In this document: piece by piece, positions 1 through 32,319 of the stretch
How positions within the stretch are numbered: position 1 is the first letter of the stretch
How the letters are laid out: the number at the start of each line of letters is the position of its first letter
Origin: Bacteroidia bacterium
GTDB lineage: Bacteria; Bacteroidota; Bacteroidia; Bacteroidales; VadinHA17
NCBI GenBank assembly: GCA_026391215.1
Contig: JAPLDX010000039.1
Span: 1 to 34,002 of the forward strand
Direction: 5' to 3'
Length of the DNA stretch: 34,002 nucleotides
Translations under genes and position numbers: made by a program
Notes under the pieces: model-generated
Seen by the model: the letters and a program-made list of their open reading frames with translations, nothing else
Databases searched by the model: none
Told to the model about the DNA's origin: nothing

Positions 1-3000
1 ATATTCATGAGCAGTCATATTCTCATAGCTGCCGAATTCCTGAGGCAGGTACCCGATAAGCCCCTGGAGCTCCTCACGTTTTTTCTGGGTGTCAAGCCCG
101 TTTATCCATACCTTGCCATAGCTCTGCTCCAGGATCCCGCAGATGATCCTCATAAGTGTTGTCTTCCCTGCGCCATTTGGTCCAAGCAATCCGAACATCC
201 CGTTGCCAATGTCCATCGAAACACAGCTTAATGCTTTGAATGGCTTTTTCTTTTTCCCGATCAGAGGTACCGCTGCCACAATTTTATAGATTGTTTTTCT
301 TAAGCCTTTAAACCGGCCTTCAAGCCTGTAGATATCAATATTTTCCGTGCTTAATTTTTGTCCTGTCTTATAGATGAATAATGCTACGAACCATACAAAT
401 CCAAGTATGAGCACAACAGCAATATTATCCCATTTAAGCTGGAAAAGGACAAGGTTTAAAAGAGGGACGATCCAGAAAATCACGAAATCGATGACTGGGA
501 TCATTTTTTTCAGGAATCTTTTCTTACCGCCTGATGTCATATTGGTGAACAGTTCCTTGAACTGGTTCCAGATGGCAGAGAGGAAAAACCATGTCGCAAT
601 GCTGAAAATGAAGATCCAGAATCCCTTCTTAAGGTAGAAATATGTGAAATAGACCATGAATGCAAATAACGGAAGCTGCCATGCTACCTGTGTCATGTCC
701 TTCCATTTCCTGAAATGCCGTTTTAGGCCGAGCCTGGTCCTTATCCTGTCACCTGCCCTCCATTCACGGGCCCAGCGGTTTTCCCTGTCGTAGATCTTTA
801 CAAGACTTTGTACACGGATGTTGATGTTTTCTTCGGGAGGAATGACTGTCTCCCTTGCCTTTCTAAGGCTGTTCATTATAAACCATGTTGCTGCAGGAAC
901 TAAGATTACGCTGAGAATTGTGGTGATAAGCTTCCAGAGGAATTTATCTATATTAGTGTAAATCAGAAAGATCAATAAGCTAAACACAAGAAGCTGGATT
1001 ATTTGGTTCTTCCATCCCAGCGATTTGAACCAATCAAGTGCATTCTCAAGTCCTGAATAAAATGTAGGAATAAATATAAGTGTAAGAAGGGTGCTGAGAG
1101 TGAGTCCTCCAATGACAGTAATGGCAAAAGAGGCCCCGATTACTGAAACAAATTCAGCTTTGCCCATTGCCAGGGGAACCATGGCTATAACTGTTGTCGA
1201 AGCAGTAATGAGTATTGGCCTTATCCTTGCCATGCCCGCCGACATCAATGCCCGCGAGCGGCGATATCCCCGTTTTCTCAGGATATTTGTATAATCGATA
1301 AGTATGATCCCGTTGTTGACCACAACCCCGAGGAGTATCAGGAGACCCAGAAGGGTGTTCGCATTTATAAGTGTGTTGCCTGTAAGGATAAGCGCTATCA
1401 GTGATCCAAGGGCAGCGAGTGGAATGCTGAACAGAAGCACAAACGGTATTGCAAGAGACTCAAAAACAGCGGCGAGGATCATGAAAATAAGAAGGAAGGC
1501 AATTCCTATCAGCTTGTAAAAATCTTTGAACTGGTCCTCTTCATGCACTACCTCTACCGCAATTCCTGCAGGGATATTCAGCCCGGCGACAATTGATTCA
1601 ATTTCAATCCTTGCTCCCTCAAGGAGATCCTTAGAGGATTCAATCTCGCTTGTGAAATTATAGGTTACAGTCACCCTCTTTTCCTGGTTCTCCCTGTGGA
1701 TATTACCTGTCCCGTATGCGAAAATAATATTTGCAAGCTCTTCCATTTCCATCACCCCTCCTGAAGCAGTGCTTACTTCAAGACGCCTCAGGTCATCAAT
1801 TGTTTTATCTTCATTTCGGTTTGCCAGTGTGTCTTCTTCAGCATATTTAATAATAATATCATAGCTGTCGGTCCCCTGCTTGAATGTTGCCTCCGAGGAA
1901 TATTCCCTTCCGAAAGTCATCAGCGCTGCCGAAAGATTCATTAGATTAATATTGTTCCTGCCGATATAGTCCATGTCAAAATGAAGCTGAACTTCAGGTT
2001 TATTGTCCTGGACATTCAGATTTACCCTATCGATAGTGGTAAGTGCATCAACATAGGTTCTTATATCATTGGCAAGGTCTTTCATTTGTTCAAAATCCTG
2101 TCCCTTGATGATAACGCTTTCCGATTGAGAACCGATGCCAAGCATGTTCATAAATCCTTCTCCCGGATTAATGGTTTCACCACCACCTCCACCTCCTCCT
2201 TCAAATCCGCCGCCTGTCGAAATATCATCCATGCTTATTTCAGCAGAAGAGATATTCTTTGTTTTTTCCGAGATGTCATTTTTTATTTCAGGAAGGCTCC
2301 TTTTGCTTTTTTTGTCCCAGTCTTCCGGAAGACTGATGGTTACGGTAGCCTGGTCTTCCTCGATACGGCTGACAATATCCTGCTTCTCCGGCAGTGATGC
2401 CAGCCTTGATTCAATTTCCGAAACGACTGCATCGGTTTTTTTAAGCGTTGATCCGGCCGGCATTGTCACGCTCAGCCTGAAATCAGGCGTATTTATTTCC
2501 TGGGGATTGTTCAGACTTAATGTCAGGCTTATGAGAAGCGCAGCAAAAAAGAGAGCCAGCGTCCCGATAATTGTTGATGCGGGCTTTCTCATACTTGCTT
2601 TAAGCACAAGATGGTATGCCTGGATCAGCCTGTCATGCAGGGATAGTTTCTTGAATACTTCTGAATTGCCTGTTGATTTTCCTGACAGAAGGAAGTTTGT
2701 TGCCATCGGGATGAACAGCACCGCAACTGCAAGAGATACAAGGAGGGTTGAGACTATTGAAACTCCAATGTTCTTTCCGATTATTTTGATCAGGAAGTTT
2801 GTCGAAAATATAAAGGGGAAGAAGACCACGATGGTTGTCAGGGTGGAGGCAAATATAGCCCTCCAGACTTCTCTGGTACCTTGCTTTACGGCTGTCTCAG
2901 GATCCTTGCCCAAGCCCGCAAGTCGATAGATATTCTCGAGCACCACCACGGAGTTATCGACCAGCATTCCAATAGCAAGTGCAATGCCGACCAGAGTAAG

Positions 3001-4149
3001 GCTGTTGATGGTTATATCATAGGCATAAAAGAAATTGAATGCAGCGTAAACTGAAATAGGCATTGAGACTGCAATAACTGTCACGAGACGAACATTCCTT
3101 AGAAAGAACCAGAGAATAATTATAGCCAGGATAGCTCCTGTTATTGCCAGGTTAATGATCTGGTTGATATTCTCCTCCATCGTCTCGGCGCTGTTATACT
3201 GAACGACAACTTCGACTCCGGCAGGAGCAAGATCCCTGTTAAGCTTGTTTACCTGGTCTATGGCATCATGTGACAGCTTGATAAGATTAGCCTGGTTATC
3301 ATTAACAAGGTTCACTGTAACAGCATCCATCCCGTTGACCCTGCTGTATGACGTCTGCTCCTTAACACCATAAAAGATCTCGGCAATATCGCGCAGCAAT
3401 ACAGGCCCTTCCTGCTTGACGATGATACTGCCAATTTCATTTACATCAGTATATTCCGAGGTAATGTTTACGAACAGCTCGTTATTGCCGTCAACTACCT
3501 TGCCAGCGAAAGTCTTTTCCCTTCCGTTATTGTTAAGCAGAGTCCTGATCTGTCCCATAGTTATTCCCAGGGATTTACATGCTTTCTCGTTGAGACGGAT
3601 CTCAATTGAATTCTCCTGACCTCCGTAAACCTGCACTCCGGCAATGCCATCAATGTTCTCAAATTTGGGCTTGATATCCCTGTCTGTGATGTTTCTGATC
3701 CTGTCAACGCCTCCCTCTCCCAATACCTGGAGCGCCATGAACTGGTTTGTCAGCTCCTCAAGGTCAATCTTTATTACATTAATAATAAACTCCTGGGGAA
3801 TTGAACTCTTTACCAGATCTATTTTTTCCTGCAGCTTGAGGTTAGCATATTTAAGATCGGCATTCTGATTGTAATAGATCACGATTGTACCGAAACGGGA
3901 GCTGATGTTTGTTTCTATCTTTTCAACTCCCTCAAGTGTACCTATCGTTCCTTCAATAGGAATGATAGCTTGTGTTTCTATATATGAAGGGTCCATTTCC
4001 AGGGGAGTGCCAACCTGGACTAACAATGCCGGAAGCTGCGCATTCGGGATGAGCTCAAGTGATAATTTCTTATAAGAGATGTAGCCGAGCATTGACAGCC
4101 CGGTAAATAACATTATGATAAGGATCCTTCTTTTTAAAATAAAGTCCAT
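1..4149 (-). CDS. AcrB/HAE1-like RND permease fused C-terminally to extra TM helices and an ABC ATP-binding domain (>=1383 aa, 3' end outside window)
   Basis: Manual translation from ATG at 4149: [40 protein letters not shown]...; TM4 [16 protein letters not shown] (~2970-2925); TM10 [10 protein letters not shown] (1320); [12 protein letters not shown]; TM12 [20 protein letters not shown]. Same frame then gives [22 protein letters not shown] (Walker A 183-157) and Q-loop [10 protein letters not shown] (60-31). 1320->1 was read codon by codon with no stop. For the rest, any in-frame stop would have produced a closed minus-strand ORF in the track, and none is listed. Confidence 0.93.
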   Translation of the reverse strand, partial: [1383 protein letters not shown]

Positions 4150-4156
4150 TTTTCTC

Positions 4157-7100
4157 TTAAGATTGAACAGGATCTGCTGCAGTTCTTCTTTTACCTCTTA
4201 CAAAAACGCTGAATGAATCAAAAACCCAGTAGACACATGGAATGACAACAAGTGTCAGAAGCGTTGAGGATACCAGTCCTCCGATCACCGCCAGGGCCAT
4301 CGGAGACCTTAGTGATGCACTTTCCCCGATACCGATTGTCAGCGGCAGCAGAGCCAGTATTGTTGTCAGACTTGTCATAAGGATCGGCCTGATACGCTGT
4401 GATCCGGCAAGTACAATGGCATCTTTCTTCTCCATTCCCCCTTCCCTCAGCTGATTTATCCTGTCTATGAGTATTATCGCGTTGTTGACAGCAATCCCCG
4501 CCAGCATTATGATACCGATATAAGCCATCATGTTCAGCGATTTGCCAAGCAGAAAGAATATCAGTACAGTTCCGACTCCGGCAAGAGGGATGGTAAGCAT
4601 AATGACAAAAGGCTGTATTATTGATTCAAACTGTGCTGCCAGCACCATGAATACAAGGACCAGTGAAAGGATCAATGCAAACGTCAGATTTGTATTGGAT
4701 TCTTCTCTTTTCATCTCCTCTCCGGTGAACTCCATCTTGTAATCAACCGGCATAACAATGCCTTTCAAAGCTGATTCAGCGTCTCTGATGACCTGGTCAA
4801 ATGCCATACCCGGTTTTACCATTGCATATATGTAGCACGTTCTCGACTGGTTACGCCTCGTAATTTCCCTTGGACTCACAATTGTCCTTATATCAGCCAG
4901 TTCGCTTAACGGAACCCTCACATTGCCGGCAGTTATCATGAGATCCTGAAGCTGATGCAGTGATATCTCTCCAAGCCTGATTGTAATATCTTTCAGCTCT
5001 CCCTCCTGTTCAAAGCTGCCGGCTGCAGCTCCCTCAAGATAGCTCTTTAGCTGGTTGATCACATTCTCGACGGTAACATTGTAATAGCTCGTCTTAAAAC
5101 GGTCAATGGCCACCTCTACCTCAGGAGTTCCTTCATCCATTGAGGTTGTAAGATTACTGAGCCCGGGATTTTGTTCAAGGATTGCCCTGGATTCCTTAAG
5201 GATCTTTTCAAGCTCAATATAATCCTCACCTGAGATCTCAAGTGCAAAGGGAGATTCAGTTGTTCCGAGCGATGTCTGAAGTGCAGTCTCTTCCCTGGTA
5301 AAGTTCACTTCCAGGTCAGGGACAGATTCAAGGTAGTTCTCAATCAGGGTTATTGAACTTTCAGTCTCTGATGCATATTTATCGGTAAGGATCACTTTGA
5401 GGGAAGCTGTGTTTTCACCTTGTACAGTCGATGTCTGGCTTATTGTTGAAGTATTGTCTTCCCCCGACTGGCTGTATATCATTTTTATCTTTTCACCGAG
5501 AAGTTCCCTGATGATACCTTCAGTATTGGAGGCGGTGCTGAAAGTCCTTTCCAGGCTGGTGCCTTCAGGCAGCTTCAATTCGATTGTAAATTCGGCTGAT
5601 TCGGATTTTGGCATAAATTCACTTCCCAGCTGAGGTATAAGCAGGGCACAGGCACCCATCAGAATGACAGCCAGGAGAATGACAAGATTTCTCTTTTCCA
5701 CGATTTTCTCCAGGAACCTGGTATACCAGGTAAATTTGACCGGTGCGCTTAAACGGTCTTTTTTCTTAGTATCTCTGAACAATGTTGAAACCAGCATTGG
5801 TATTACAAGCATTGCTACGAGAAGTGATGAAAGAAGGGAAAAAGCCACCGTCCATGCCTGGTCCCTGAACATTTCACTTGATGCGCCATGAAGGTAAACG
5901 ATAGGAAGAAAAACCACAATTGTTGTAACGGTGGATGATGTGATTGCTGCCCCCACCTGGCCGGCGCCATTTATTACCGCATCTTTCAGCGGCATTCCTT
6001 CCTCAGTCAGACGGGTAATATTCTCGAGTACGACGATTGAATTATCCACAAGCATTCCAGCTCCCAGGGCAAGTCCGCCCAAAGTCATTATATTGAGAGT
6101 GAGGTGATTGAAGTACATCAGGTTGAATGTGGCAATTATAGATATTGGAATTGCCACACTTATTACCAGGGTTGTCCCTATTCTCCTGAGAAAAATATAC
6201 AGGACGAAAACCGCAAGAAGGATACCTATTAATAATGTATTCTTTACTTCACCTATTGCATTCTTAATATAGGTTCCCTGGTCCAGCACCTTGATGAATT
6301 CATATCCTGGCAATGCTTTCCCCAGGTCAATAATAGCCTTATCAAGGCTTTTTACTGCATCAACAGTATTGAATTTAGGTTCTTTATATATTGAAAGCCC
6401 GATACACCTCTCCCCATTGATTGTAACAATGTTCTGAGGATCTTTATTTGCAAAACCGATTTTTGCAACATCCCTCAGGTATACAGGCACCCTTGCTGAA
6501 GATGAAGCAGTGGAACCACCAGCAGCCGAAACGGCTGAAACATTTGCAGCTGATGAACTTCCTGAAGATGATGCCTGTTTGAAGCCGACAATAATATTCT
6601 CAAGATCCTGAAGATCTTCAAGAACACTAACACCTTTAACGACATATTTTGTTCCCATGTCGACTATCGAGCCTCCCGAAACATTCCTGTTGTAATTACT
6701 AATCTGTGCTGCTATCCCGTCAGATGTAAGCCCGAATGACTCAAGCAGATATTTGTTTGTCTTAATTACCACTTCACTCTCTTCCACACCGGTCAGTTTC
6801 ACGTCGGCCACACCTTCAATCCTTACGAGCTCATTGCGGATATAATTTTCAGCAACTTTCCTTAGCTCATCCATATTGGTTATGCGGTCATTCTTAAGTC
6901 CAACGATCATTACAGGAGATGCATTGGGATCGTACTGTGAAATTGTAAAATCCTCAAGATCAGAGTTCTGACTGAATGAATTCAGCTCTTTCTGAAGATC
7001 AAGGAATGCCTCATCCATATCCTTGTTCCAGTTGTATTCCACTGTTATATTGGCTGAACCGGCATGTGATACAGACGACACCTGTGTCACATTACTCTGC

Positions 7101-7321
7101 CTCATAGCCAGTGATTCAATCTGATCAACATAATTCTTTTCTATCTCTTCGGGAGGCTTTTCACCTGCTTTCAGCTCAATATAGATCTTTGGAGTGTTGA
7201 GATCAGGAAACAGGTCAGTGCCGAGCTTACCGAACGAGATAAATCCCAGCAGGACGATGCCCAGCATCAGCATAAGAACCGTGACCGGGTATTTGACAGC
7301 AAATCGGGCAATAGCGTTCAT
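4157..7321 (-). CDS. Efflux RND transporter permease subunit (AcrB/AcrD/AcrF family), 1054 aa
   Basis: ORF track; typical length and motifs GMLVDNSIVVLENI, LAAQFES, GIAVNNAIILID, RIRPILMTSLTT, AVIGGL. Confidence 0.97.
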   Translation of the reverse strand: MNAIARFAVKYPVTVLMLMLGIVLLGFISFGKLGTDLFPDLNTPKIYIELKAGEKPPEEIEKNYVDQIESLAMRQSNVTQVSSVSHAGSANITVEYNWNKDMDEAFLDLQKELNSFSQNSDLEDFTISQYDPNASPVMIVGLKNDRITNMDELRKVAENYIRNELVRIEGVADVKLTGVEESEVVIKTNKYLLESFGLTSDGIAAQISNYNRNVSGGSIVDMGTKYVVKGVSVLEDLQDLENIIVGFKQASSSGSSSAANVSAVSAAGGSTASSSARVPVYLRDVAKIGFANKDPQNIVTINGERCIGLSIYKEPKFNTVDAVKSLDKAIIDLGKALPGYEFIKVLDQGTYIKNAIGEVKNTLLIGILLAVFVLYIFLRRIGTTLVISVAIPISIIATFNLMYFNHLTLNIMTLGGLALGAGMLVDNSIVVLENITRLTEEGMPLKDAVINGAGQVGAAITSSTVTTIVVFLPIVYLHGASSEMFRDQAWTVAFSLLSSLLVAMLVIPMLVSTLFRDTKKKDRLSAPVKFTWYTRFLEKIVEKRNLVILLAVILMGACALLIPQLGSEFMPKSESAEFTIELKLPEGTSLERTFSTASNTEGIIRELLGEKIKMIYSQSGEDNTSTISQTSTVQGENTASLKVILTDKYASETESSITLIENYLESVPDLEVNFTREETALQTSLGTTESPFALEISGEDYIELEKILKESRAILEQNPGLSNLTTSMDEGTPEVEVAIDRFKTSYYNVTVENVINQLKSYLEGAAAGSFEQEGELKDITIRLGEISLHQLQDLMITAGNVRVPLSELADIRTIVSPREITRRNQSRTCYIYAMVKPGMAFDQVIRDAESALKGIVMPVDYKMEFTGEEMKREESNTNLTFALILSLVLVFMVLAAQFESIIQPFVIMLTIPLAGVGTVLIFFLLGKSLNMMAYIGIIMLAGIAVNNAIILIDRINQLREGGMEKKDAIVLAGSQRIRPILMTSLTTILALLPLTIGIGESASLRSPMALAVIGGLVSSTLLTLVVIPCVYWVFDSFSVFVRGKRRTAADPVQS

Positions 7322-7326
7322 GTCTG

Positions 7327-8379
7327 TTATTTGATTATTTTCACTTTCGACCTGTTGCTGAGGGTCTCAAAGCCGCCTGTAACCACGCGTTCATTTTTAG
7401 CAAGCCCCCTGGTAACCTCAACATCAGTGATATTCTCAAGTCCTGTTTCAATTATACGTTCCGCTGCAACGCCACGGTCAACTATGAATACTGTCTTACC
7501 TCTCTGACGGGATAGTATGATGCTCTTCGGAATTACAATTACGGAATCCCTGAGGTCAGTCACTATATCTGCTTTCACGAACATTCCCGGCCGCAAAAGG
7601 TAATCCTGGTTATCAATGGATACAGTTCCCTTGAAGGTCCTTGTATCGGCATTTATTGCCGGTGACAATTGTGTCACATGGCCTATTATGGTATCTTCGG
7701 GAATCGTATAATTTGTAAGCTTGACAACCTGCCCGGCTTTAATGACAGAGATATATTTTTCAGGCATCTGGACATCCATGTACATTGTCCTGTAGTCCAT
7801 TATCTTAACGATTGTCAATCCGGTTTCAATCTGTGTGCCCTGTGTATGATATGGCAGATCTACAATAACACCATCGATCGGAGCAACTATTTTTGTCTTT
7901 GCCAGCTGCAGCTTTGAATTGACAACAGTCGTCTTTGCATTTTCATAGTTGATGCCCGCGGTCTTAAGCTCCTTGAGAGTGACTCCTCCTTTTTCGTACA
8001 GTGATTCCTGCTTTCTCAGCTCTGTTTCCATGAGCTCAAGGTTAAGCTTGTTTGTCTCCATCTTAACGGAATTTATATACTCCTCGTCCTCGAGCCTGGC
8101 AATCAGATCGCCGGTTTTGACCTTGTCGCCCATCTGCCACATTTTCCCGGTCTGTGGATTTCTTTCAAGAAAATATGTTGCGCCAATTTTTGATTTAAGC
8201 TCTATCTCTCCTTTTGGGAATGCAGTGCCGGTAGTATTGATGAATTCCTCAATTGGCCTGAGCTTAAGCTCCTCGACTGAAACAGGGATCTCGACATCTG
8301 CTGTCAGGTTCTGGTCCTGGTTACGGCATGAGGCAAGTGCAAAAAGCAAGGCTGCGGCTAGGATTAGATTTTTCTTCAT
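7327..8379 (-). CDS. RND periplasmic adaptor (membrane fusion protein), predicted lipoprotein
   Basis: Lipobox-like LASC at residue 18; GDKVKTGDLIARL and IVAPIDGVI lipoyl halves, LRPGMFV, VIPKS, GLAKNERVVTGG. Confidence 0.95.
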   Translation of the reverse strand: MKKNLILAAALLFALASCRNQDQNLTADVEIPVSVEELKLRPIEEFINTTGTAFPKGEIELKSKIGATYFLERNPQTGKMWQMGDKVKTGDLIARLEDEEYINSVKMETNKLNLELMETELRKQESLYEKGGVTLKELKTAGINYENAKTTVVNSKLQLAKTKIVAPIDGVIVDLPYHTQGTQIETGLTIVKIMDYRTMYMDVQMPEKYISVIKAGQVVKLTNYTIPEDTIIGHVTQLSPAINADTRTFKGTVSIDNQDYLLRPGMFVKADIVTDLRDSVIVIPKSIILSRQRGKTVFIVDRGVAAERIIETGLENITDVEVTRGLAKNERVVTGGFETLSNRSKVKIIK

Positions 8380-8398
8380 TTTATTATGAATTTATTTT

Positions 8399-9883
8399 TT
8401 ATTCTTCTATTGACATTACCGGTGATACAGCCTCCTTCTTTTCAAAGTCATAGAGAGTCTGTATTTTAAGATTCAGCAACTCAAACTTATAGGATATAAG
8501 CGAATTGGTATATGAAAGCTGTTTCTCTGAAAGCTGGTTCTGAAATATATTCAGGTCCATACCTGTAAGATCGCCATTCTTGTATTTTTCAAGATTAAGA
8601 TCATAAGTAAGCTGAGCATTTATTACATTCTGACGTGCTATTTCGATCTGATTCTGAAGATTAAGCAGGTTCCTGTAAACCTTTCTTATACTGAGAATTA
8701 TATCATTCTGCTCCTCTTCCAGCGATATGTTTGCAGTCTCTATTGACGCCTCTGATGCTTTGATACGTGATTTTCTTTCTCCCCAATCCCATAATGGTAT
8801 GATAAGCGAAAGAGACACACTTTCATTATCTGTAGGATTATCATACACACCTCCGAATTTTTCATTATCCCCGAAGAGGCCGACCGAAAGGCCAAGACTT
8901 CCTTTAAATTCATTGAGTGATTTGGTCTGCATTAATTCGAATTCAGATTCCTCAATGCTTATTTTCCTTTGCCTCAGCTCCATCCTGTTTGCCAGTCCCT
9001 GATCGATTGCAAATGAAATATCTATCTGAACAGTATCCACTGCAATGTTAGGCAGTACGATGAGGTCATCATAAAGACTCATTCCGATCAGAACTTTAAA
9101 ATCATCCTTGGCATTTTCAAGATCGACCTGCTTGTTTTCATAATCCGATCTTGCTGTGGCAAGGTTAAGTTCTGCCTGGAACATTTCTTCACGGGGGGAG
9201 ATGCCGGCATCAACCTTATTCCTTGATACCTCGTAGCTTTTCTTCATATTCTCATATGCCTGGCTGGCTATATCAAGACTCTGCTGCTGCTGGTATACAT
9301 AGTAAAAAGCCTGGGTTACCATATTCTCAAGCGATAACAGCTGTATGGCATAGTTGAGCTGTGAATTTTCAAGGGCGAGCTCGAGTTCCCTCAGCTGGAG
9401 CTTTGTCCTGTTATATGTGAACAAAGGCTGATCGAGGCTCAGGGATAGATTATTGCTGAATCCTTTTGTCGTCTGATCGGTGTATTCGCTGTAAGAATCG
9501 GTATACCCGAACTTATTTGTTAATGAGACTCTTGCGTCGGTAAGAACTATCGGCTGTGATATTGTGAAAAGGCTATAGCTTTCAGTAGTTTGGGTTGAGT
9601 TCCATTTAGATATAAGCTCATTGAATGTCCTGTTCTGGCTATAGCCAATCGGGTTTACTGACAGGGAGAAGCTCGATTTCAATGCAGCCTTCTGTGCATT
9701 CAGATTCTCCTGGCTTCTTACCAGGCTGAGCCTTGTCTTTTTCATCGTCGGACTGTTTGTCTCGGCAACCTTCAGCGCCTCCTCAAGAGTCAGCCCCTTC
9801 TGCGGAAAAACACATAACGTACTTATTATCAGCAAGAATCCTGAAAATATATACCTGCTTCTTGTTTTAATTAGAATTTTCAT
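8399..9883 (-). CDS. TolC-family outer membrane efflux protein
   Basis: LTLEEALKVAETNS start, LSLDQPLF, VTQAFY, LIIPLWDWG, two OEP halves. Start set at ATG 9883 before the signal peptide; ATG 9910 is an alternative. Confidence 0.93.
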   Translation of the reverse strand: MKILIKTRSRYIFSGFLLIISTLCVFPQKGLTLEEALKVAETNSPTMKKTRLSLVRSQENLNAQKAALKSSFSLSVNPIGYSQNRTFNELISKWNSTQTTESYSLFTISQPIVLTDARVSLTNKFGYTDSYSEYTDQTTKGFSNNLSLSLDQPLFTYNRTKLQLRELELALENSQLNYAIQLLSLENMVTQAFYYVYQQQQSLDIASQAYENMKKSYEVSRNKVDAGISPREEMFQAELNLATARSDYENKQVDLENAKDDFKVLIGMSLYDDLIVLPNIAVDTVQIDISFAIDQGLANRMELRQRKISIEESEFELMQTKSLNEFKGSLGLSVGLFGDNEKFGGVYDNPTDNESVSLSLIIPLWDWGERKSRIKASEASIETANISLEEEQNDIILSIRKVYRNLLNLQNQIEIARQNVINAQLTYDLNLEKYKNGDLTGMDLNIFQNQLSEKQLSYTNSLISYKFELLNLKIQTLYDFEKKEAVSPVMSIEE

Positions 9884-9939
9884 TTTATCTATTTGAATTC
9901 TTTTAACCATTTTCTTAACCAAGGAGTTACACTGTTTTT

Positions 9940-9992
9940 TCTCCCCTTATTCTTAAGGGGAGACGTCACGAGCTTGCGAGTGACAGAGGGGT
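9940..9992. repeat. REP-like intergenic palindrome (CCCCT...AGGGG type)
   Basis: TCTCCCCTTA-ttct-TAAGGGGAGA perfect 10-bp stem (9940-9963), then GTCAC-N10-GTGAC (9965-9984) and AGAGGGGT. Confidence 0.7.
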
Positions 9993-12900
9993 TCATTCCA
10001 CTCTGACCCACTTTATCGCATCCCCCAGTACGACCCTTCCTGCCGACTGATTTGTCAGTTCAACCTTTGCGCTGTCGGATGATATATAATAGCGACCCAT
10101 GTTATTCCATCCTGCTTCTGCATTCTCAAAATCCACGGTTATCTCCTCAACACCTTCATCATGATATATTTTATAATGCATATCCTTATAAAGACTCTCC
10201 TGTCTTGATTCATCGCCCGGAGGAGGAGGTGCATTTCCTCCGCTGGTGACAGTTACACGTTCAGTCATTTTTCCGACGTAACAATAAATATCATAATAAC
10301 CAGCCTTATCAACAGGTGTTATCCATGATACAGGTCTGTCGTCTGTTCCGCCTGCTGTATAGACCGAAGAGAGAATGTACTTGCCATAGTAATACGAATT
10401 TACTACCGGTTGCCAGTAATTCGGGCGATCATATCTTCGTACCTGCTGATAGATATCTCCCCTGGTGTTTTTTATTCTTAGTATCTTTTTTAGAAGGCTC
10501 GGGCTCTGCCTTATTCCAGGATTGAATCCGGGATCTTCATTGTCAACAATGGTTTCGCCGGGATATGAATACCGCGGCATTGACTCCAACAGTTCTTCAC
10601 TGTCTGAATCTCCGTTTTTGTTTTTCGATTTTTTTATTTCATCAACAGGCATATTAATTTCTCCCGGAATGTTCTTTGCACCAAGAGAGTTGATAAGCAT
10701 TTCTCTTGGTTCTGTATCAAGAATTATGCTGATCTTCTTTGCTTCACCCGGCCCCAGCATTACAATTTTTGAAATATCTGTGACATCCATTCCTCTTCCC
10801 TGACTCTGAAAATCATATGCTCCTGCCATGCCCTGCTGGGATGTTAACGATGTCTGACGTGCACTGCCTCCTGCCCCTGCTGTCCTGAATGCTACATTGA
10901 ATATTCCGGCAACGGGTTCAGGATTTGATGCGGTAAAAGTGACCCGATACCTGATCCTGTTGTCCACAACAATTTCATTTACCTGCATATCGGTAAAAAG
11001 AAATCCCGGCTGCTCTTTTGTATTGAACCAGTCATACAGATAAGGATAAAACTCAAATCCGAATTTTGCTTTTATATCATCATTGAATCTCTTTATATCT
11101 ATCCTTATGAATTTATGATCCTCAACATAATTGCGGAAAAAATCATTGAACTCCTGGATACCGGCTTTTGATCTCAGAATATTGAAAATATAATCTCCTT
11201 TAAGTGTCACTATGAGCCTGACAGTATCAATCCCCGGATTCATGGCAAGCAGATCCCTGAAGCTTCCGATCCTGAATATCAGGTTTGTCCTGTCAATATC
11301 AGAGAGTCCGCCTATCCATGATCTGTAATCCCATTCCGGTTGAGTATCAATTTTCTGAAGATGTGATTCAAAGACGGCATTTATCACAGGATAATCTTCT
11401 GAAAAGAAATTGTTCTTATGGAAATAGAAGCTCGGACCGAGCAAATATCGGCCAGGTTCATTTATAACAACGTTATTCCTGAATCTGATATTCTCTCCGT
11501 TAATGAAAGTATTCCTTATGAAATCATTAAATATCCTTACCTGAAGCTCTTTGTCAGTTATAACCTGGTTATTTCTGGCCATTCTTTTCTTGTTGCGATT
11601 GAATCGTTTTTGAAAGCCGGCACCCTGAGTTGTGGATAACTTCTCAGGGAGCAGTACCATTGAGGGCTGCACCTCAGCCCTGGTCTGCGTGCTCATCCTG
11701 GGTAAAGAATAAAACTGAACAGGTACCTCAAGAAGGCTCAGTGTCCTGAAAGGATATTTAGTGGAAAAGTTTACTTCCAAATCTCTCAATATACCTTTGA
11801 CAAGCAATGGCAGGGTATCTTTTATTTCTGCAAGAGCCTTTTTATAATAATCATGTCCGGGAAAGTAGTACGTGATATAATTAATTGTATCATCCTTTAA
11901 TGTATCTGACCTGTAGTCACCTATGGCAAGTGTCAGCCCTGTTAGAGGTGATTCAGGGTCGAAAACAGAATAACCATCCTCTGCCTTCATTATTCCCTGT
12001 GAAACCGGCGTCAGACCATTCATTGGTTTGACACGTAAAGTATAATTAGTAAAATCAACTTTAATTCTGGCCGGATTGGAGGGATAGTAATTAAGTCCCG
12101 GAACCGGATACCAATGTAACTCGGGAATTAACAGGACATACTTCTCCGATAGAAATGCCTGACGCTTGTGTATGTTCAGCATTTGGATCTGATAAGGATT
12201 TTCTTTGATATTATCAGTATAATCAGGATAACTGAATGATTCATTAATAGTACCGGAATACGAAATGATCAGACTGTCCTGTCGTCCGGGAAGAAGAGTT
12301 GTCAGAGCATCAACTTCTATTATGTGGTGAGTTGTTTTAAAGGTGAGATCTTTTCCGCCTGAAGTGATCCCTGTGACATTTAAACCCGGATTTAGTGAGA
12401 ACAGGTATTTGTCGAGACCCTCTTTATTATCATTTGTGAATTTCAGCGCAGCAGTTGCATCAAATGAATTCCCATTGTGTATAAAATCAATTGCAGCATC
12501 AGTCAGGCTTACAACATTCCTGTCTTCAAACTGTTTATTGGTCTCAATGACCAGTTTCTTTTCATCAATATCTTTCTTATATATAGAATAAGTGTTATAA
12601 GCACACACAACTGCTCCTGCCGTGAATATGACCAGGAAGACGTAACTCAGTATTGTATGCAGCCGTGATTGTGGCAACCTTTTGAATAACAATACTGTTA
12701 CAAGGACAAAGACAAGTCCCAGGAAAAAGTAAAGCAAACGCTGGTTTATTATAAAATCAAGATTATCATATCCAATGACACCCGATTTAAAAACTGGAAG
12801 ACCGAATGCCATATAATCGAATATTGACCCGAAACGGAAATAAAGATAGAAGATGTCGAGAGCAGCTATTCCAAGCAGTATAAGAAAAGTTATAGCCTGG

Positions 12901-13421
12901 TTCCTGATGACAGACATCAGCATAAAAGCCAGCCCGAGACTGAAGACAATTGTTGGTACACAGATAATAAGAAGATATGATAGATATGATAAAAGGTCGA
13001 TCGTCATCATTTTTGAAATGATATTCATCAGCAGGCCTATTAACAGGATTATGATATCCAGTCCAAGGAAAAGCCTTAGAATGCCCCATGTCTTCCCCAT
13101 TATATATTCGAAGTTGGACATGGACCTTGTGTAAAGAACTTCATTTGTATCGACCTTCTTATCTCTCTTCAGAAAATCAGAAGCAAGGAATATCACTACT
13201 ATTGCCTGGGCAATATTGAGCAGGTAAAGATTAAGTAGCGGTACTGATGAAGGAATTGAGACAAGACCCCACGTCTCATCTCCGATCGGAGAGAAAACCC
13301 CGATATTCAGGAATGTAAAGATCAATAGGGCACCTATTGAAAAGAGCCTGAAAAACCAGCTTCTCCTCAGGATTGTGGCTTCATACCTGGCAACTGTTCT
13401 TATGTTAAGAAGGGGTGTCAT
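9993..13421 (-). CDS. ABC-2 type permease fused to M1-aminopeptidase-like ectodomain (no HExxH) and C-terminal golvesin/Xly-like domain
   Basis: About 7 hydrophobic segments in the first ~280 aa with ABC-2-like motif DTNEVLYTRSMSNFEYIMGK; M1-like segments ELHWYP, KYPFRTLSLLEVP, LKGDYIFNILRSKAG..F..FFRNY; C-terminal IVDNEDPGF...GYYDIY...GWNNMGRY...VLGDAIKWVR. ATG 13421 preferred over TTG 13445. Confidence 0.85.
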   Translation of the reverse strand: MTPLLNIRTVARYEATILRRSWFFRLFSIGALLIFTFLNIGVFSPIGDETWGLVSIPSSVPLLNLYLLNIAQAIVVIFLASDFLKRDKKVDTNEVLYTRSMSNFEYIMGKTWGILRLFLGLDIIILLIGLLMNIISKMMTIDLLSYLSYLLIICVPTIVFSLGLAFMLMSVIRNQAITFLILLGIAALDIFYLYFRFGSIFDYMAFGLPVFKSGVIGYDNLDFIINQRLLYFFLGLVFVLVTVLLFKRLPQSRLHTILSYVFLVIFTAGAVVCAYNTYSIYKKDIDEKKLVIETNKQFEDRNVVSLTDAAIDFIHNGNSFDATAALKFTNDNKEGLDKYLFSLNPGLNVTGITSGGKDLTFKTTHHIIEVDALTTLLPGRQDSLIISYSGTINESFSYPDYTDNIKENPYQIQMLNIHKRQAFLSEKYVLLIPELHWYPVPGLNYYPSNPARIKVDFTNYTLRVKPMNGLTPVSQGIMKAEDGYSVFDPESPLTGLTLAIGDYRSDTLKDDTINYITYYFPGHDYYKKALAEIKDTLPLLVKGILRDLEVNFSTKYPFRTLSLLEVPVQFYSLPRMSTQTRAEVQPSMVLLPEKLSTTQGAGFQKRFNRNKKRMARNNQVITDKELQVRIFNDFIRNTFINGENIRFRNNVVINEPGRYLLGPSFYFHKNNFFSEDYPVINAVFESHLQKIDTQPEWDYRSWIGGLSDIDRTNLIFRIGSFRDLLAMNPGIDTVRLIVTLKGDYIFNILRSKAGIQEFNDFFRNYVEDHKFIRIDIKRFNDDIKAKFGFEFYPYLYDWFNTKEQPGFLFTDMQVNEIVVDNRIRYRVTFTASNPEPVAGIFNVAFRTAGAGGSARQTSLTSQQGMAGAYDFQSQGRGMDVTDISKIVMLGPGEAKKISIILDTEPREMLINSLGAKNIPGEINMPVDEIKKSKNKNGDSDSEELLESMPRYSYPGETIVDNEDPGFNPGIRQSPSLLKKILRIKNTRGDIYQQVRRYDRPNYWQPVVNSYYYGKYILSSVYTAGGTDDRPVSWITPVDKAGYYDIYCYVGKMTERVTVTSGGNAPPPPGDESRQESLYKDMHYKIYHDEGVEEITVDFENAEAGWNNMGRYYISSDSAKVELTNQSAGRVVLGDAIKWVRVE

Positions 13422-13437
13422 AATTTCCCTGGCTATC

Positions 13438-14331
13438 CTATTCAATTAAATCAGCATGCATTTTATGTTCCATATAATATACATAAGCATCTTCTATATT
13501 CGGTATTATTTCAGTTGATTCAAATTCCGGAATGTTATCTGCAACAATCTGCACCTCCCATCCGGATTCTACAGGGATCGTGGAGATCACATCATATCGT
13601 TCCTTGACCGTCTCATAATCGCGGGGCGAAAGATTTAGCTTAAATACATGTCCTTCAGCTTGTTTGACGAGGCTTTCAGGAGATCCAGTAAACACAAGCT
13701 CTCCCTTATTCAGCAATGCCATTCCCTGGCAGGTAGAGGAAATGTCCCCGACAATATGTGTCGAAAGGATTATAGTAACATCATGCTGGCTGAGCTCTGA
13801 GAGGATATTCCTGAACCTTATCCTTTCATCAGGATCAAGTCCGGTTGTAGGTTCATCGACAATAATAATCCGCGGATTCCCGATAAGCGCCTGTGCAATT
13901 CCAAGCCTTCGCTTCATCCCTCCTGACAGCTTGTTGGCCTGACGGTCACGCACCTCCAGAAGCCCTACCTGGTCAAGAAGTCTGTCAACTTCTGCAAATC
14001 TCTCTTTTTTATTTTTCAAACCTGCCAATGATCCTGAATAATCAAGGAATTCCCAAGTCCTCAGTGAAGAGAAAAACCTGAAATCCTGCGGAAGATAGCC
14101 GAGCATGCCTCTGATTTCCTTCCTGTGTTTCTGGATATCTTTCCCATCAACAAGCACAACACCCGAAGTAGGTTTCATCAGTGTCACCATTATTCTCATA
14201 AGGCTTGATTTGCCAGCTCCGTTGGGTCCGAGAAGTCCGAACATGCCGGTTCCGAATTCAAGGTTTACATCCTTTAATGCCTGATTGCCATTTGGATATA
14301 TTTTATTCAGCCCCTGAATTTCAATTTTCAT
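13438..14331 (-). CDS. ABC transporter ATP-binding protein (ABC-2/DrrA-like)
   Basis: Walker A GPNGAGKS, Q-loop GYLPQ, signature LSGGM, Walker B IIIVDEP, H-loop LSTH. Confidence 0.97.
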   Translation of the reverse strand: MKIEIQGLNKIYPNGNQALKDVNLEFGTGMFGLLGPNGAGKSSLMRIMVTLMKPTSGVVLVDGKDIQKHRKEIRGMLGYLPQDFRFFSSLRTWEFLDYSGSLAGLKNKKERFAEVDRLLDQVGLLEVRDRQANKLSGGMKRRLGIAQALIGNPRIIIVDEPTTGLDPDERIRFRNILSELSQHDVTIILSTHIVGDISSTCQGMALLNKGELVFTGSPESLVKQAEGHVFKLNLSPRDYETVKERYDVISTIPVESGWEVQIVADNIPEFESTEIIPNIEDAYVYYMEHKMHADLIE

Positions 14332-14380
14332 GTTACCGGAGAGGTATTTAGGTAGTTTGTTGTGGGTTATTACGCAATAA

Positions 14381-14405
14381 AGACGTCATTTATTTTAAAT
14401 GTTGC
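14381..14405 (-). promoter_or_regulatory. Possible ECF-sigma-type promoter of the RND/ABC operon
   Basis: Minus strand reads GCAAC-N15-CGTCT, ~50 nt upstream of ATG 14331; resembles AAC...CGT ECF promoters but the spacer is about 1 nt short. Confidence 0.3.
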
Positions 14406-14430
14406 TTAAAAGTTACAACTATTTATTAAA

Positions 14431-14537
14431 AGTTCCTTTGTGACCCTTCGTGAATACCTTCGTGATCCTTTGTGGTTAGATATTTTTTACTACAAAGGGA
14501 CACTAAGTGCACACAAAGTAACACAAAGGGAAGAACT
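14431..14537. repeat. Mirror array of heptamer boxes forming a long imperfect inverted repeat
   Basis: Four CTTYGTG boxes at 14436, 14446, 14458, 14468 and four inverted YACWAAG boxes at 14491, 14501, 14512, 14522; ends AGTTC/GAACT. Confidence 0.8.
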
Positions 14538-14564
14538 GATAGGACCTTGTTATAAACAAATTCA

Positions 14565-14572
14565 TACTTTTG
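14565..14572 (+). promoter_or_regulatory. Bacteroidota sigma-A -7 box
   Basis: TACTTTTG matches TAnnTTTG, ~20 nt upstream of the GTG start of the HD-lpx operon. Confidence 0.6.
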
Positions 14573-14591
14573 TAAGTTAAATATCCTTAAA

Positions 14592-15845
14592 GTGACATTT
14601 AAAACAAACAAAAGAAAGATAATCAATGATCCTGTATATGGATTCATAAATATTCCTGGTGATTTTATTTTTGACCTTGTTGAGCATCCATGGTTCCAGA
14701 GGCTGAGGAACATCAGGCAGCTCGGGCTTACAAGCTTTGTTTATCCCGGAGCCAACCACAGCAGGTTTCAGCATTGCCTGGGGGCATTGCACCTTATGGA
14801 TCTTGCACTCGGGACACTTAAAGGAAAGGGTGTCAGCATTTCGCAGCAGGAGGAAGAGGCCGCACAGATTGCTATTCTTCTGCATGACTCCGGTCATGGC
14901 CCGTTCTCCCATGCTCTTGAGACTTCAATAATCAATGGCATTTCCCATGAAGACATTTCCCTCCTGATGATGAGGAAGCTGAATGAACAGTATCAGGGGA
15001 AACTCAGCCTGGCAATAGAAATTTTCAAAGGGACTTATCACAGAAAATTTCTGCATGAGCTTATTGCAGGACAGATAGATATGGACAGGCTCGACTACCT
15101 GCGCAGGGACAGTTTCTTTACAGGAGTCATCGAAGGTTCAGTGGGATCGGACAGGATAATCCGTATGCTTAATGTTGTCGATGACAGCCTTGTAGTAGAT
15201 GAAAAAGGAATTTATTCACTCGAAAAATTCCTGATAGCCCGAAGGCTTATGTATTGGCAGGTTTATATGCATAAGACAGTGCTTTCTTCGGAAAACCTGC
15301 TTGTGAGAATTCTCAAGCGGGCAAAGGAGCTTGCGCTTGAGAGCGTCGACCTATATGCTACTCCGGCCCTACGGTTCTTCCTGTATAATAAAATAGGCCC
15401 TGATGATCTTCTGAGGGATGGAAATTTCACGCCAGGCCTGGTGGCTTCAACATTTACCAGGCTTGATGATTCAGATATCCTTGTCTCGGCAAAATACTGG
15501 GCTGATCATTCCGATAAGATCCTTTCCGATCTTTCAGCGAGGCTTATGAAAAGAGACCTCCTGGCAATAGAACTGCAGAATGAACCGTTCCCTAAAGAAA
15601 GGGTGAATAAACTGAAAGCCATGACTGCAGAAATGAAAGGTATAAGTACAGAAATGGCGGATTATTATGTTTTCACAAACAGCATATCGAACCTTGCATA
15701 TACGCCTGATGCACCGGAAGTCAGAATATTGCTAAAATCGGGCAAGACAGAGGGCATCTCAACAGTTTCGGATATGTTCGATCACAGATTTAATTCAGAG
15801 AGAATGATTAAATATTTTCTTTGCTATCCAAAAGAATGCAGATAA
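14592..15845 (+). CDS. HD-domain phosphohydrolase (dNTP triphosphohydrolase-like)
   Basis: INDPVYG, FQRLRNIRQLG, HSRFQHCLG, LLHDSGHGPFSH, DMDRLDYL; usual position upstream of lpxD in Bacteroidota. Confidence 0.93.
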   Translation: MTFKTNKRKIINDPVYGFINIPGDFIFDLVEHPWFQRLRNIRQLGLTSFVYPGANHSRFQHCLGALHLMDLALGTLKGKGVSISQQEEEAAQIAILLHDSGHGPFSHALETSIINGISHEDISLLMMRKLNEQYQGKLSLAIEIFKGTYHRKFLHELIAGQIDMDRLDYLRRDSFFTGVIEGSVGSDRIIRMLNVVDDSLVVDEKGIYSLEKFLIARRLMYWQVYMHKTVLSSENLLVRILKRAKELALESVDLYATPALRFFLYNKIGPDDLLRDGNFTPGLVASTFTRLDDSDILVSAKYWADHSDKILSDLSARLMKRDLLAIELQNEPFPKERVNKLKAMTAEMKGISTEMADYYVFTNSISNLAYTPDAPEVRILLKSGKTEGISTVSDMFDHRFNSERMIKYFLCYPKECR

Positions 15846-15860
15846 CTAATTATAAGAATC

Positions 15861-16898
15861 ATGGAATTTACAGCAGCAACAATAGCCGGATTTCTGAAAG
15901 GAGAAATAGTAGGAGATCCTGATACCGTTGTCAATACAATAGCGAAAATTGAAGAAGGTCATGAAGGGGCTCTTTCATTTCTTGCAAATCCGAAATACGA
16001 GCATTACTTATATACCACCGGATCATCTGTTGTGCTGGTAAACAAAAGCCTGGTGCCGTCTGAAAAAGTCAGAGCCACTATGATCAGGGTTGATAATGCC
16101 TATGAATCGTTTGCATCTCTGCTTCAGCTTGTTGATCAGGCAAGGCCAAGAAAAAAAGGCATACATCCCACAGCGGTCATAGAGCCAACAGCCACTATTG
16201 GATCAGATATCTATATAGGAGCGTTTGCATATATCGGCGATAATTCTGTGGTGGGAGACAATTGCTCAGTATATCCCCATGTTTATTTAGGTGACAGAAC
16301 CAGGATAGGCAAAGACAGCATTCTTTATTCAGGTGTCAAAATTTACCATGAATGTATTGTTGGCGAGGGATGCATAATCCATGCAGGATCAGTTATCGGA
16401 AGCGACGGTTTCGGATTCGCACCCCAGTCTGAAACGGAATACATGAAAATACCGCAGATTGGCAATGTTGTTATTAAAGATCATGTGGAGATCGGTGCAA
16501 ATGTAACAATTGACCGTTCCACAATGGGGTCCACAGTGATCCATAAAGGAGTTAAGCTTGATAATCTCATCCAGGTAGCCCATAATGTGGAAATAGGCGA
16601 AAACACTGTTATAGCAGCACAAACAGGAATTGCAGGTTCAGCAAAAGTAGGCAGGAACTGTATGATAGGAGGACAGGTAGGTATCGCCGGACATATTAAA
16701 GTTGCTGACGGAACAAAAGTAGGAGCACAGACTGGTATTCACAGTAATGTAAGAACTGAAAACACTATATTACTAGGCTACCCCGCTATCGAACATAAGA
16801 ATTTCTTCAGATCAGCAATGATTTTCAAAGATTTACCAGAACTATCAGCCAGACTAAATGCTTTGGAAAAAGAGGTTAAATCACTTAAAGAAAAGTAA
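15861..16898 (+). CDS. lpxD: UDP-3-O-(3-hydroxyacyl)glucosamine N-acyltransferase
   Basis: LSFLANPKY, hexapeptide repeats, [26 protein letters not shown]. Confidence 0.98.
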
Positions 16899-17017
16899 AA
16901 AATTGTCCTGGTCTGTTTTAAATTAACTGGTATTTATGCAGTTATAAGCAGTTTTTTTAGATTGTTCTGTTTTTTTTTATTTTTTTTGTACCCGAAATCA
17001 CAATCAATACAATACTG

Positions 17018-18412: not shown

Positions 18413-18419
18413 TTCCGCG

Positions 18420-23914: not shown

Positions 23915-24043
23915 AACGGCAGGCATAAAGTGATAAAAGAGAAAAATTACTGAAAATTCTGATAACGGCAAATTCTTTTTGACCAAATGAATAAAATGGT
24001 CTATAAATAAAAGAATTGAATAGATGAAAAATTCCCCGGATTG

Positions 24044-27122: not shown

Positions 27123-27142
27123 AAGAAACAAATTCACTTTCG

Positions 27143-27183
27143 CCCCCTCTTTGCTTTAGCAGAGAGGGGGACGGGGGGTGAGT
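27143..27183. repeat. REP-like intergenic palindrome (CCCCCTCT...AGAGGGGG + GGGGGTGAG tail)
   Basis: CCCCCTCTTTGC-ttta-GCAGAGAGGGGG 12-bp stem with one G.T pair, followed by ACGGGGGGTGAG; no U-tract. Confidence 0.75.
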
Positions 27184-27190
27184 ACATGAA

Positions 27191-27225: not shown

Positions 27226-27230
27226 GTATC

Positions 27231-29362: not shown

Positions 29363-29363
29363 T

Positions 29364-32315: not shown

Positions 32316-32319
32316 TTTA

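Follow-up and report, generated by a model that had tools for sequence, protein, structure and literature searches.

An RND efflux pump and an ABC transporter are joined, in part as a single protein, in a conserved seven-gene operon of sediment-type Bacteroidales

Proton-driven pumps of the resistance-nodulation-division (RND) type and ATP-driven ATP-binding cassette (ABC) exporters are regarded as two distinct answers to the problem of export across the Gram-negative envelope. For some siderophores and drugs, it is established that separate transporters carry out export in two steps, and cooperation between an inner-membrane exporter and an RND pump is likewise viewed as a matter of separate transporters. 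Can the two be built as one machine? The question is raised by a 34,002-nucleotide stretch of DNA (the window) from a Bacteroidia bacterium of the VadinHA17 lineage (assembly GCA_026391215.1, contig JAPLDX010000039.1), in which genes of both kinds lie side by side and one RND permease continues in frame into an ABC ATPase. The window is contig C75 from base 1, in a genome assembly of 135 contigs that is 98.9% complete. We find that these genes belong to a conserved seven-gene operon of sediment-type Bacteroidales, in which a proton-type RND efflux pump and an ATP-driven ABC transporter are combined, in part as a single 1,580-residue protein.

All six genes of the locus that lie in the window are on the minus strand, in the order NBD1 (a free nucleotide-binding domain [NBD]), large permease, TolC, periplasmic adaptor (membrane fusion protein [MFP]), RND-A, and RND-B::NBD2 (Table 1), with intergenic gaps of 16, 109, 19, 5, and 7 nucleotides (nt) when the starts used by the orthologs are applied. 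A preliminary description, made from the sequence alone, had given this order and spacing and had called the locus a hybrid of RND and ABC parts with one adaptor, one TolC, two RND paralogs, and two clearly related NBDs; our analysis bears out each of these points. RND-A and RND-B are 28% identical, and NBD1 and NBD2 are each other's closest paralogs in the genome (42% identity over 275 amino acids [aa] versus 32 to 36% for the next best) and share family-specific motifs. The RND core looks like an ordinary tripartite one, with a TolC-like channel, a single lipoprotein adaptor, and a pair of RND paralogs as permeases. The channel scores 163 bits for PF02321 in three stretches (gathering score, 22) and lies below the cutoff of NCBIfam TIGR01844 (119.6 versus 225). 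The adaptor passes the cutoff of TIGR01730 (187 versus 94.9 bits) and begins with MKKNLILAAALLFALASC, which includes a lipobox-type Cys. Both RND proteins span profile positions 1 to 1020 of PF00873 (739.7 bits for RND-A and 531.7 bits for RND-B; cutoff, 28). This core is flanked by putative ABC-2 (type V) parts, NBD1 and the large permease upstream and NBD2 and a small permease downstream.

The small permease lies outside the window, the contig of which ends within NBD2; the preliminary description had allowed that more genes might follow beyond this left edge, and they do. Contig C63 ends in 141 bases that are the same as positions 1 to 141 of the window and that no other contig end has, and it holds the rest of NBD2 and a seventh gene, the small permease. 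Taken together, the two pieces give a complete RND-B::NBD2 protein of ~1,582 aa. The join of C75 and C63 rests on the 141-base overlap and on relatives: seven of the eight loci from the same genus have an uninterrupted fused gene of 1,579 to 1,604 aa, followed by the small gene. At the eighth (L022), the fused and small permease genes are present and the contig ends after the adaptor gene. A serA-like gene after the small permease was matched at none of the eight genus loci and is hence not counted as a member of the operon. With two ATPases and two putative ABC-2-type membrane subunits, the locus therefore has the parts list of a complete ABC transporter.

That the fusion or the end of the operon might be an assembly artifact or chimera is a thought invited by the contig break inside NBD2 and by the number of contigs in the assembly. 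Against this, the frame from the RND domain to Walker A is continuous within one contig, the fused frame is present in three complete single-contig genomes (G294, G124, and G133), and the 141-base end is common to C63 and C75 only. We consider an artifact exceedingly improbable: as judged from the continuous frames of the relatives, the fusion is conserved, real, and old.

How widely is it kept? A search with residues 1036 to 1383 (the linker and the NBD part) listed the best 120 clusters, mostly of 1,527 to 1,591 aa, together with 16 shorter ones (823 to 1,234 aa) and the window's own 1,383-aa piece. PF00873, PF00005, and PF03176 were all present in 119 of these 120, and P0075 lacked PF03176. 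The database names of the fused proteins are automatic only (e.g., [quoted passage not shown]). Within the genus, 14 of 18 species matched, with frames of up to 1,607 aa, while the two matches outside the genus in that search covered the ATPase part only and were ordinary 300-aa ATPases. For the order, the linker alone (265 aa; E ≤ 1e-5) served as the query and was found in 54 of 401 genomes, representing 35 of 236 genera, at identities down to 27%. The frames were of 1,536 to 1,764 aa in 43 of the 54; the 11 shorter ones include G000 (contig end) and G384 (split), and several are at contig starts. A draw of 400 other genomes from the phylum added three with the linker, two from another order of the class and one from another class. 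A profile search of 1.84 billion representatives gave 144 hits, none of them a relative of the linker outside the fused family; all were proteins of ~1,550 to 1,590 aa with the linker at ~1,020 to 1,290, or shorter pieces. Labilibacter sediminis CG51 is a cultured, nonpathogenic carrier of the full-length fusion. A search for carriers with generic ATPase patterns yielded 3 full-length relatives among the 80 matches listed, a figure that gives no distribution.

Gene neighborhood conservation had been set beforehand as a check on the preliminary description, and it was passed strongly. Based on our own calls of open reading frames and blastp, all seven genes stand in the same order at seven of the eight genus loci and at 26 of 30 loci from other families, other orders, and one other class. 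At L056 and L070, the order agrees as far as the DNA reaches, and the small permease directly follows NBD2 in every syntenic locus. The seven genes are inherited together. In G133, a genome on one contig, the fused gene (at 2.07 Mb, alone among housekeeping genes), the large permease (2.65 Mb), and the small permease (2.35 Mb) are dispersed and all kept. In G384, also on one contig, the fused gene consists of two overlapping frames of 1,099 and 478 aa (locus L065, 4661-7960 and 3241-4677), and the break falls exactly between the two-helix hairpin of the linker and the first strand of NBD2. The G384 split may be a natural unfused form or a frameshift. The locus in G090 (L045, contig C59) is rearranged at a contig edge, and a single 1,764-aa frame there (11459-16747) takes in both the fused gene and the small permease.

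Efflux genes of different classes often cluster, and the scattered genes of G133 and the split gene of G384 would fit a locus of independent pumps that are merely coregulated against a common stress, the fusion being mechanistically meaningless. Such an explanation must contend with a peptide bond that is kept in at least 35 genera while linker identity falls to 27%, with invariant residues in the linker, with the presence of only one adaptor and one TolC in the entire set, and with a linker family that occurs nowhere else among the representatives searched. We regard it as very unlikely.

The part of the protein that ties the two modules lies in the ~270 residues between the RND domain and the PF00005 match. 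Hydropathy places six extra helices here, after the last transmembrane helix of the RND domain (TM12), as two helices, a hydrophilic stretch, and four helices. An AlphaFold2 (AF2) model (mfc54d03138d0) of the C-terminal 551 residues of a genus ortholog, built on a 36-row alignment (predicted local distance difference test [pLDDT], 82; predicted template modeling score [pTM], 0.67), has helices at residues 17 to 37 and 41 to 66, a strand at residues 82 to 91, and helices at residues 120 to 143, 147 to 177, 182 to 211, and 214 to 240, followed by the ATPase core. The hydrophilic stretch, INIRVQSLVKIY, matches the start of NBD1, KIEIQGLNKIY. In NBD1, Walker A follows 24 residues after this start, and in NBD2 the matching continuation (PFKALSCVS...GPNGAGKT) comes ~180 residues later. 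The V, K, and Y of the first strand and the following R are invariant in 36 sequences; from its position, we take the Tyr to be the adenine-stacking residue of the A-loop. The structures nearest to the NBD2 model are ABC-2-class ATPases, namely, TM_1403 (Z, 23.0; root mean square deviation, 5.2; 264 aligned), NosF, and the NBDs of ABCA4/7. When stand-alone ATPase chains are aligned with the model, their residue 1 falls at model residues 78 to 81 and the alignment runs through to ~548 with only 220 to 264 aligned positions, which is the pattern expected of an internal insertion. The linker is not a passive tether: it comprises a two-helix hairpin, the first strand of the ATPase, and a four-helix membrane insertion. 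The ATPase of NBD2 is split, its first strand with the invariant Tyr being parted from the rest by the four membrane helices.

Both ATPases look active, as far as their motifs tell. NBD1 has Walker A, the Q-loop, an SGGMKRR signature, a DEP Walker B, and an STH H-loop; NBD2 likewise has the full catalytic set (with signature, Walker B, and H-loop on C63), and its motifs are invariant in 36 sequences. The orthologs of NBD1 are 59 to 86% identical, and its nearest NCBIfam models, DrrA (190 versus a cutoff of 312) and GldA TIGR03522 (186.7 versus 402.6), are both far from their cutoffs; the ATPase is of the DrrA/GldA/NosF/ABCA class with a C-terminal domain. Neither FtsX nor MacB_PCD was among the families listed for the proteins of the locus or their orthologs, and MacB chains match via the ATPase domain only.

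The large permease consists of a probable ABC-2-type membrane domain (aa 1 to 298, with about seven helices), an M1-aminopeptidase-like part (~aa 305 to 800), a beta-sandwich, and a Golvesin_C domain (to aa 1140). Hydropathy gives seven helices and no further one beyond aa 282 of the open frame. As the helices are confined to the first ~290 residues, the other 850 residues would, by topology, lie outside the cytoplasm. With an AF2 model (35-row alignment; pLDDT, 81.8; pTM, 0.76), the top Foldseek matches were IRAP (E = 1.8e-18), ERAP1, ERAP2, and tricorn factor F3, with E values up to 3e-15 over ~680 columns (640 to 730) at 10 to 12% identity and a TM score of ~0.35 on the target. HExxH(x18)E is the zinc site of M1 peptidases, and GxMEN is their exopeptidase motif. 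Among 35 orthologs of the large permease, HExxH was found in none and GxMEN in one, and the periplasmic part has no invariant His. The protein thus appears to carry a catalytically dead M1-peptidase fold, i.e., a pseudoenzyme, in line with the "pseudo-peptidase" of the preliminary description. Over the same orthologs, Pfam gave Golvesin_C in 35, ABC2_membrane_2 (PF12679) in 21 (best E, 2.7e-7), and Peptidase_M1 (PF01433) in 14 (best E, 5e-6); the window's own large permease did not match PF12679. Its ESM Atlas neighbors at 0.99 are nameless or "ABC transporter permease" clusters with Golvesin_C, and those at 0.87 to 0.88 are "ABC transporter permease/M1 family aminopeptidase" clusters.

The small permease matched ABC2_membrane_3 (PF12698) in 6 of 37 orthologs (best E, 8.5e-6), and our own copy did not. 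When the small permease, the linker, and the membrane domain of the large permease were compared profile against profile, nothing significant emerged (best E, 0.12). Complex prediction of the linker and NBD2 with the small permease scored 0.56, and the best of three controls scored 0.00; the runs agreed in at least 79% of contacts, with a partner pLDDT of at least 75. The mark used for such predictions is reached by 58 of 80 solved complexes and by 2 of 110 mismatched pairs, and scores of 0.60 or less with the mark came from 7 of those 80 solved complexes and from both of the passing mismatches. The prediction lends weak support to contact between NBD2 and the small permease.

How might these parts work together? 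On balance, we think it probable, with modest confidence, that the locus encodes one composite envelope exporter, in which an ABC-2 module is tethered to an RND pair and the two share one adaptor and one TolC. NBD1, NBD2, and the two unlike permeases would form one heteromeric ABC-2 transporter, which would be anchored through RND-B to a trimer of RND-A and RND-B, with the hairpin of two helices and the insertion of four helices in NBD2 as anchors. Its ATP would be spent on moving a substrate from the cytoplasm or the inner leaflet, or on working the periplasmic M1-like domain mechanically, and the ABC module would supply or actuate the point of periplasmic entry into the conduit of RND proteins, adaptor, and TolC. 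The RND pair, with the adaptor and TolC, would then pass the substrate across the outer membrane, so that two export steps normally carried out by separate transporters would be tied into one complex. In favor of this reading we count the age of the fusion and the synteny of the seven genes, the retention of dispersed genes in G133, the intact motifs and mutual relatedness of the two ATPases, the ABC-2-class structure of NBD2, the makeup of the large permease, and the lack of terminator-like sites in the gaps. The association of the small permease with NBD2, as seen in gene order, in the shared frame of G090, and weakly in the complex prediction, also speaks for it. The pairing of NBD2 with NBD1 and an RND heterotrimer of 2:1 composition, both of which the preliminary description had proposed, are inferred. 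The same description had favored peptides, lipoproteins, or glycans over drugs as the substrate; this is not supported, the basis for it being limited to the catalytically dead peptidase fold and the Golvesin_C domain.

One heteromeric ABC transporter is the simplest arrangement, and the gene order equally allows two homodimeric ones. Each ATPase gene is paired with the permease gene after it, and both ATPases have fully canonical sites, as in homodimers. Two separate ABC-2 transporters, each with two copies of its ATPase and permease (one built from NBD1 and the large permease, the other from NBD2 and the small permease), might therefore stand beside the RND pump. The fusion would then merely place the second transporter next to the pump, with NBD2 dimerizing via the two RND-B protomers of an A1B2 trimer or between trimers. 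The complex prediction also lends weak support here, as it favors contact between NBD2 and the small permease and decides nothing on NBD1, and the single frame holding NBD2 and the small permease in G090 points the same way. NBD1 and NBD2 are, however, the nearest paralogs of each other, both modules are always retained together, even when dispersed in G133, and a twofold ATPase dimer would sit awkwardly on a threefold RND trimer. We hold two homodimeric transporters to be unlikely.

A different role for the ATPase is suggested by the RND proteins themselves. The proton relay was read by alignment with AcrB, MdtB, and MdtC as given in the record of Escherichia coli K-12. At AcrB positions 407, 408, 940, 971, and 978, AcrB, MdtB, and MdtC have D-D-K-R-T, and RND-A and RND-B both have D-N-N-R-T; neither has the HAE-1 relay triad D407-D408-K940. 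The pattern is stable in 37 orthologs of RND-A (D in 37; N in 35 and D in 2; N in 35 and S in 2; R in 37; T in 37) and in 38 of RND-B (D in 38; N in 36, C in 1, and T in 1; N in 38; R in 38; T in 38), and the remaining five RND genes of this genome have DDKRT (three genes), DDERT, and DGLRT. According to one review, D407, D408, and K940 form the proton relay triad of AcrB, with D408 the residue best shown to cycle protons, and substitution of any of the three, or of R971, abolishes efflux (PMC8277102).

Given a reduced relay in both RND proteins, the membrane-anchored NBD2 might drive or gate the cycle of RND-B, as the six extra helices wire the ATPase into the membrane beside TM12 of the RND domain. 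This ATP-assisted pump is, in our view, quite unlikely. RND-A has the same relay pattern without an ATPase, and D407, R971, and T978 are invariant, so the one-carboxylate relay likely still works. As controls, we read 20 of the 28 RND matches in five linker-free genomes of the order; of the other eight, one is truncated at a contig start, three are weaker matches of full length, and four are partial. The 20 comprised DDKRT (7), DDRRT (5), DGLRT (4), DNNRT (2), DGQRT (1), and EGIRI (1). The two DNNRT genes, both in G047, belong to a TetR-OEP-MFP-RND operon (L172, C1:4838000-4857000; OEP, TolC-like outer membrane factor) and an MFP-RND-RND-OEP operon (L173, C1:3824000-3842000), and neither operon has an ABC gene. 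We accordingly rejected the reduced relay as evidence for ATP drive, since D-N-N-R-T occurs in fusion-free genomes with no ABC gene nearby; the one-carboxylate relay is, by the same token, a trait of an RND lineage that also works without an ATPase. On the evidence of these alignments, a Bacteroidota RND lineage without D408 and K940 exists. A dual-energy machine, in which an ABC motor, wired into the membrane by four helices inserted in its own ATP-binding domain, directly moves an RND protomer with a reduced proton relay and the conduit is driven or gated by ATP besides or instead of the proton gradient, seems to us similarly doubtful.

Two further observations concern RND genes of these genomes. 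The L173 operon is flanked by beta-propeller genes (DUF5128 and TolB_like). CzcA-like RND genes with the relay D-G-L-R-T occur in frames of 1,451 to 1,526 aa that exceed the length of an RND domain by ~450 aa (G000:C107:11266-14355, G024:C22, G047:C1:3734373, and G019:C6), which suggests another conserved RND fusion in these four genomes.

Several findings weigh against a single composite exporter. The only contact seen between the RND and ABC parts is the peptide bond, and this covalent linkage is not obligatory, as G384 shows; operon linkage is not obligatory either, given G133. Both NBD sites are canonical, and a heteromeric pair would often show one degenerate site. The small permease is ABC-2-like on the strength of the six orthologs noted above, and its comparison with the membrane domain of the large permease (E = 0.12) is not significant, so that a common origin of the two is not supported. 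The weakness of the complex prediction counts on the same side, and the triple fusion of G090 comes from a fragmented metagenome-assembled genome (1,120 contigs) in which a one-base error is possible. Finally, the MFP-RND-RND-OEP operon of G047 shows the RND core without ABC flanks; as it has no ABC gene, the RND core could work alone.

Known systems resemble parts of this locus. As in MdtBC, two adjacent RND paralogs stand behind one adaptor gene, together in 36 of the 38 loci here. They are not orthologs of MdtB and MdtC: on the NCBIfam equivalog models, which have cutoffs of 1,584 and 1,774, RND-A reaches 382 and 353 and RND-B reaches 242 and 241. The mutual identity of 28%, with only 21 to 26% to E. 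coli MdtB and MdtC, implies that the pair arose independently of MdtBC. Unlike in MdtBC, the relay is D-N-N-R-T rather than D-D-K-R-T, one paralog carries six extra helices and an ABC ATPase, and the TolC gene is in the operon. No named NCBIfam RND model was passed by either protein; the best was NF033617 RND_permease_2 (574 for RND-A and 444 for RND-B; cutoff, 1,250), and both were far under the cutoffs of the MdtB, MdtC, AcrB, AcrD, and OqxB models.

The YbhGFSR and YhiI-RbbA-YhhJ systems of E. coli are ABC-2 exporters with a periplasmic adaptor. They share with the present locus ABC-2-class ATPases and an adaptor, encoded in a single operon with two permeases that are unlike each other and, here, putatively of the ABC-2 type. 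They differ from it in lacking an RND partner, a helix-split ATPase, and an M1-like periplasmic domain; the RbbA model (NF033858) gave 145 bits against a cutoff of 1,050. NosDFY and the ABCA proteins are type V ABC systems that work on large extracytoplasmic domains, and the matches of NBD2, taken together with its C-terminal domain, include NosF (E = 2e-16) and the NBDs of ABCA4/7 (E, ~1e-15). Unlike our system, they have no RND protein and no TolC, their extracytoplasmic domains are other ones, and their ATPase is unsplit. In the "ABC transporter permease/M1 family aminopeptidase" clusters, as apparently in the large permease, an M1 peptidase domain comes after an ABC-2 membrane domain, but PF01433 is found in 83 to 100% of their members versus 14 of 35 here, where the zinc motif is absent and Golvesin_C is present in 35 of 35. 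As to GldAFG, NBD1 stays below the GldA equivalog cutoff, as given above. MacAB-TolC combines an ABC transporter and a large periplasmic domain with an adaptor and TolC, and its cytoplasmic ATP acts on the periplasmic side, according to published work (PMC5673888, PMC5985334, and PMC8277102); unlike the ABC-2-like permeases here, MacB has an FtsX-type four-helix fold with the ATPase at the N terminus. Full-text literature searches, supplements not covered, returned no description of an RND-ABC fusion, of a permease/M1 aminopeptidase protein, or of a bacterial Golvesin_C function.

At this locus, the RND and ABC types are tied by a peptide bond and kept with a fixed set of partner genes in at least 35 genera. 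If the products form one complex, it would be a natural model for the coupling of cytoplasm-to-periplasm with periplasm-to-outside export, for the docking of a twofold ABC motor on a threefold RND trimer, and for the role of an ATPase domain split by membrane helices. Two of its building blocks are unstudied: the putatively dead M1-peptidase domain on an ABC-2 permease and the RND lineage with a one-carboxylate relay.

Table 1. Features of the seven-gene locus (positions are those of the window unless contig C63, locus L007, is named)
Feature	Position	Strand	Basis
NBD1, free ABC ATPase, 297 aa, C-terminal regulatory-type domain	14331..13438	minus	PF00005, E 4e-32
Large permease, 1,142 aa when counted from the Met used by the orthologs	13421..9993	minus	Hydropathy, AF2 model, Foldseek, Pfam
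109-nt gap with GC-rich hairpin	9884..9992	minus	CTCCCCTT..AAGGGGAG, then A-run, no T-run
TolC-like outer membrane factor (OEP), 494 aa from ATG 9883, signal peptide	9883..8399	minus	PF02321, E 9e-48
Periplasmic adaptor (MFP), 350 aa, lipoprotein	8379..7327	minus	TIGR01730 RND_mfp, 187 bits
RND-A, 1,054 aa	7321..4157	minus	PF00873, E 6e-222, full length
RND-B::NBD2 open frame, runs off contig	4149..1	minus	PF00873, E 4e-159, aa 2-1032; PF00005, E 1e-12, aa 1311-1382
RND-B domain of fused protein, aa 1-1035	4149..1045	minus	PF00873
Two-helix membrane hairpin after RND TM12, aa 1049-1095	865..1005	minus	Hydropathy; model helices
First beta-strand of NBD2, INIRVQSLVKIY, aa 1108-1120	790..828	minus	Invariant V-K-x-Y
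Four-helix membrane insertion inside NBD2, aa 1152-1260	370..696	minus	Hydropathy; model helices
NBD2 core, PFKAL through Walker A and Q-loop; gene continues on C63	1..243	minus	PF00005
Remainder of NBD2, 199 further residues	C63 (L007) 5527..4787	minus	Signature, Walker B, H-loop; PF00005, E 2e-16
Small permease, seventh gene, 238 aa, six hydrophobic segments	C63 (L007) 4800..4084	minus	14-nt overlap with NBD2 gene

Signals that would divide the operon were also sought. A terminator separating the modules had been named beforehand as an observation that would speak against one machine; no terminator-like site was found in any intergenic gap on the coding strand. The scan gave 14 such sites versus 10.8 expected, none of them in the gaps. 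The hairpin of the 109-nt gap was not scored as terminator-like, and in genus relatives the equivalent gap can be anything from an overlap up to 158 nt; being so variable in length, it is no conserved separator. A sigma-70 scan, a method unsuited to Bacteroidota, gave 47 sites versus 34 expected, all in coding DNA. The -7 promoter motif of Bacteroidetes is TAnnTTTG, and it is absent from every gap, including that upstream of NBD1. With sigma-70 sites in coding DNA only and no TAnnTTTG in the gaps, no promoter was located. The divergent 260-nt region between NBD1 and an HD-domain gene (14332-14591) contains repeated words of the CCTTTGTG / CACAAAGG type in inverted orientation, which run CCCTTTGTG...GTCCCTTTGTAG...CCACAAAGG...GTCACAAAGG; an operator or a structured element is possible.

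Divergent from the operon, positions 14592 to 19196 encode the HD-domain protein and the lipid A proteins LpxD, an LpxC-FabZ fusion, and LpxA. We dropped these neighbors as a clue to function: the HD-domain and LpxD genes are found at six of the eight genus loci and were unmatched in the ~1.3 kb upstream of the 30 wider loci. An 883-aa open frame on the minus strand (21335-23986), which has no Pfam match at E ≤ 1e-5, adjoins a DUF4139/DUF4140 protein. An ordinary SufB-SufC-SufD-SufS cluster occupies 25674-30584 and is followed by QueG and an ECF-type sigma factor at 31368-33495.

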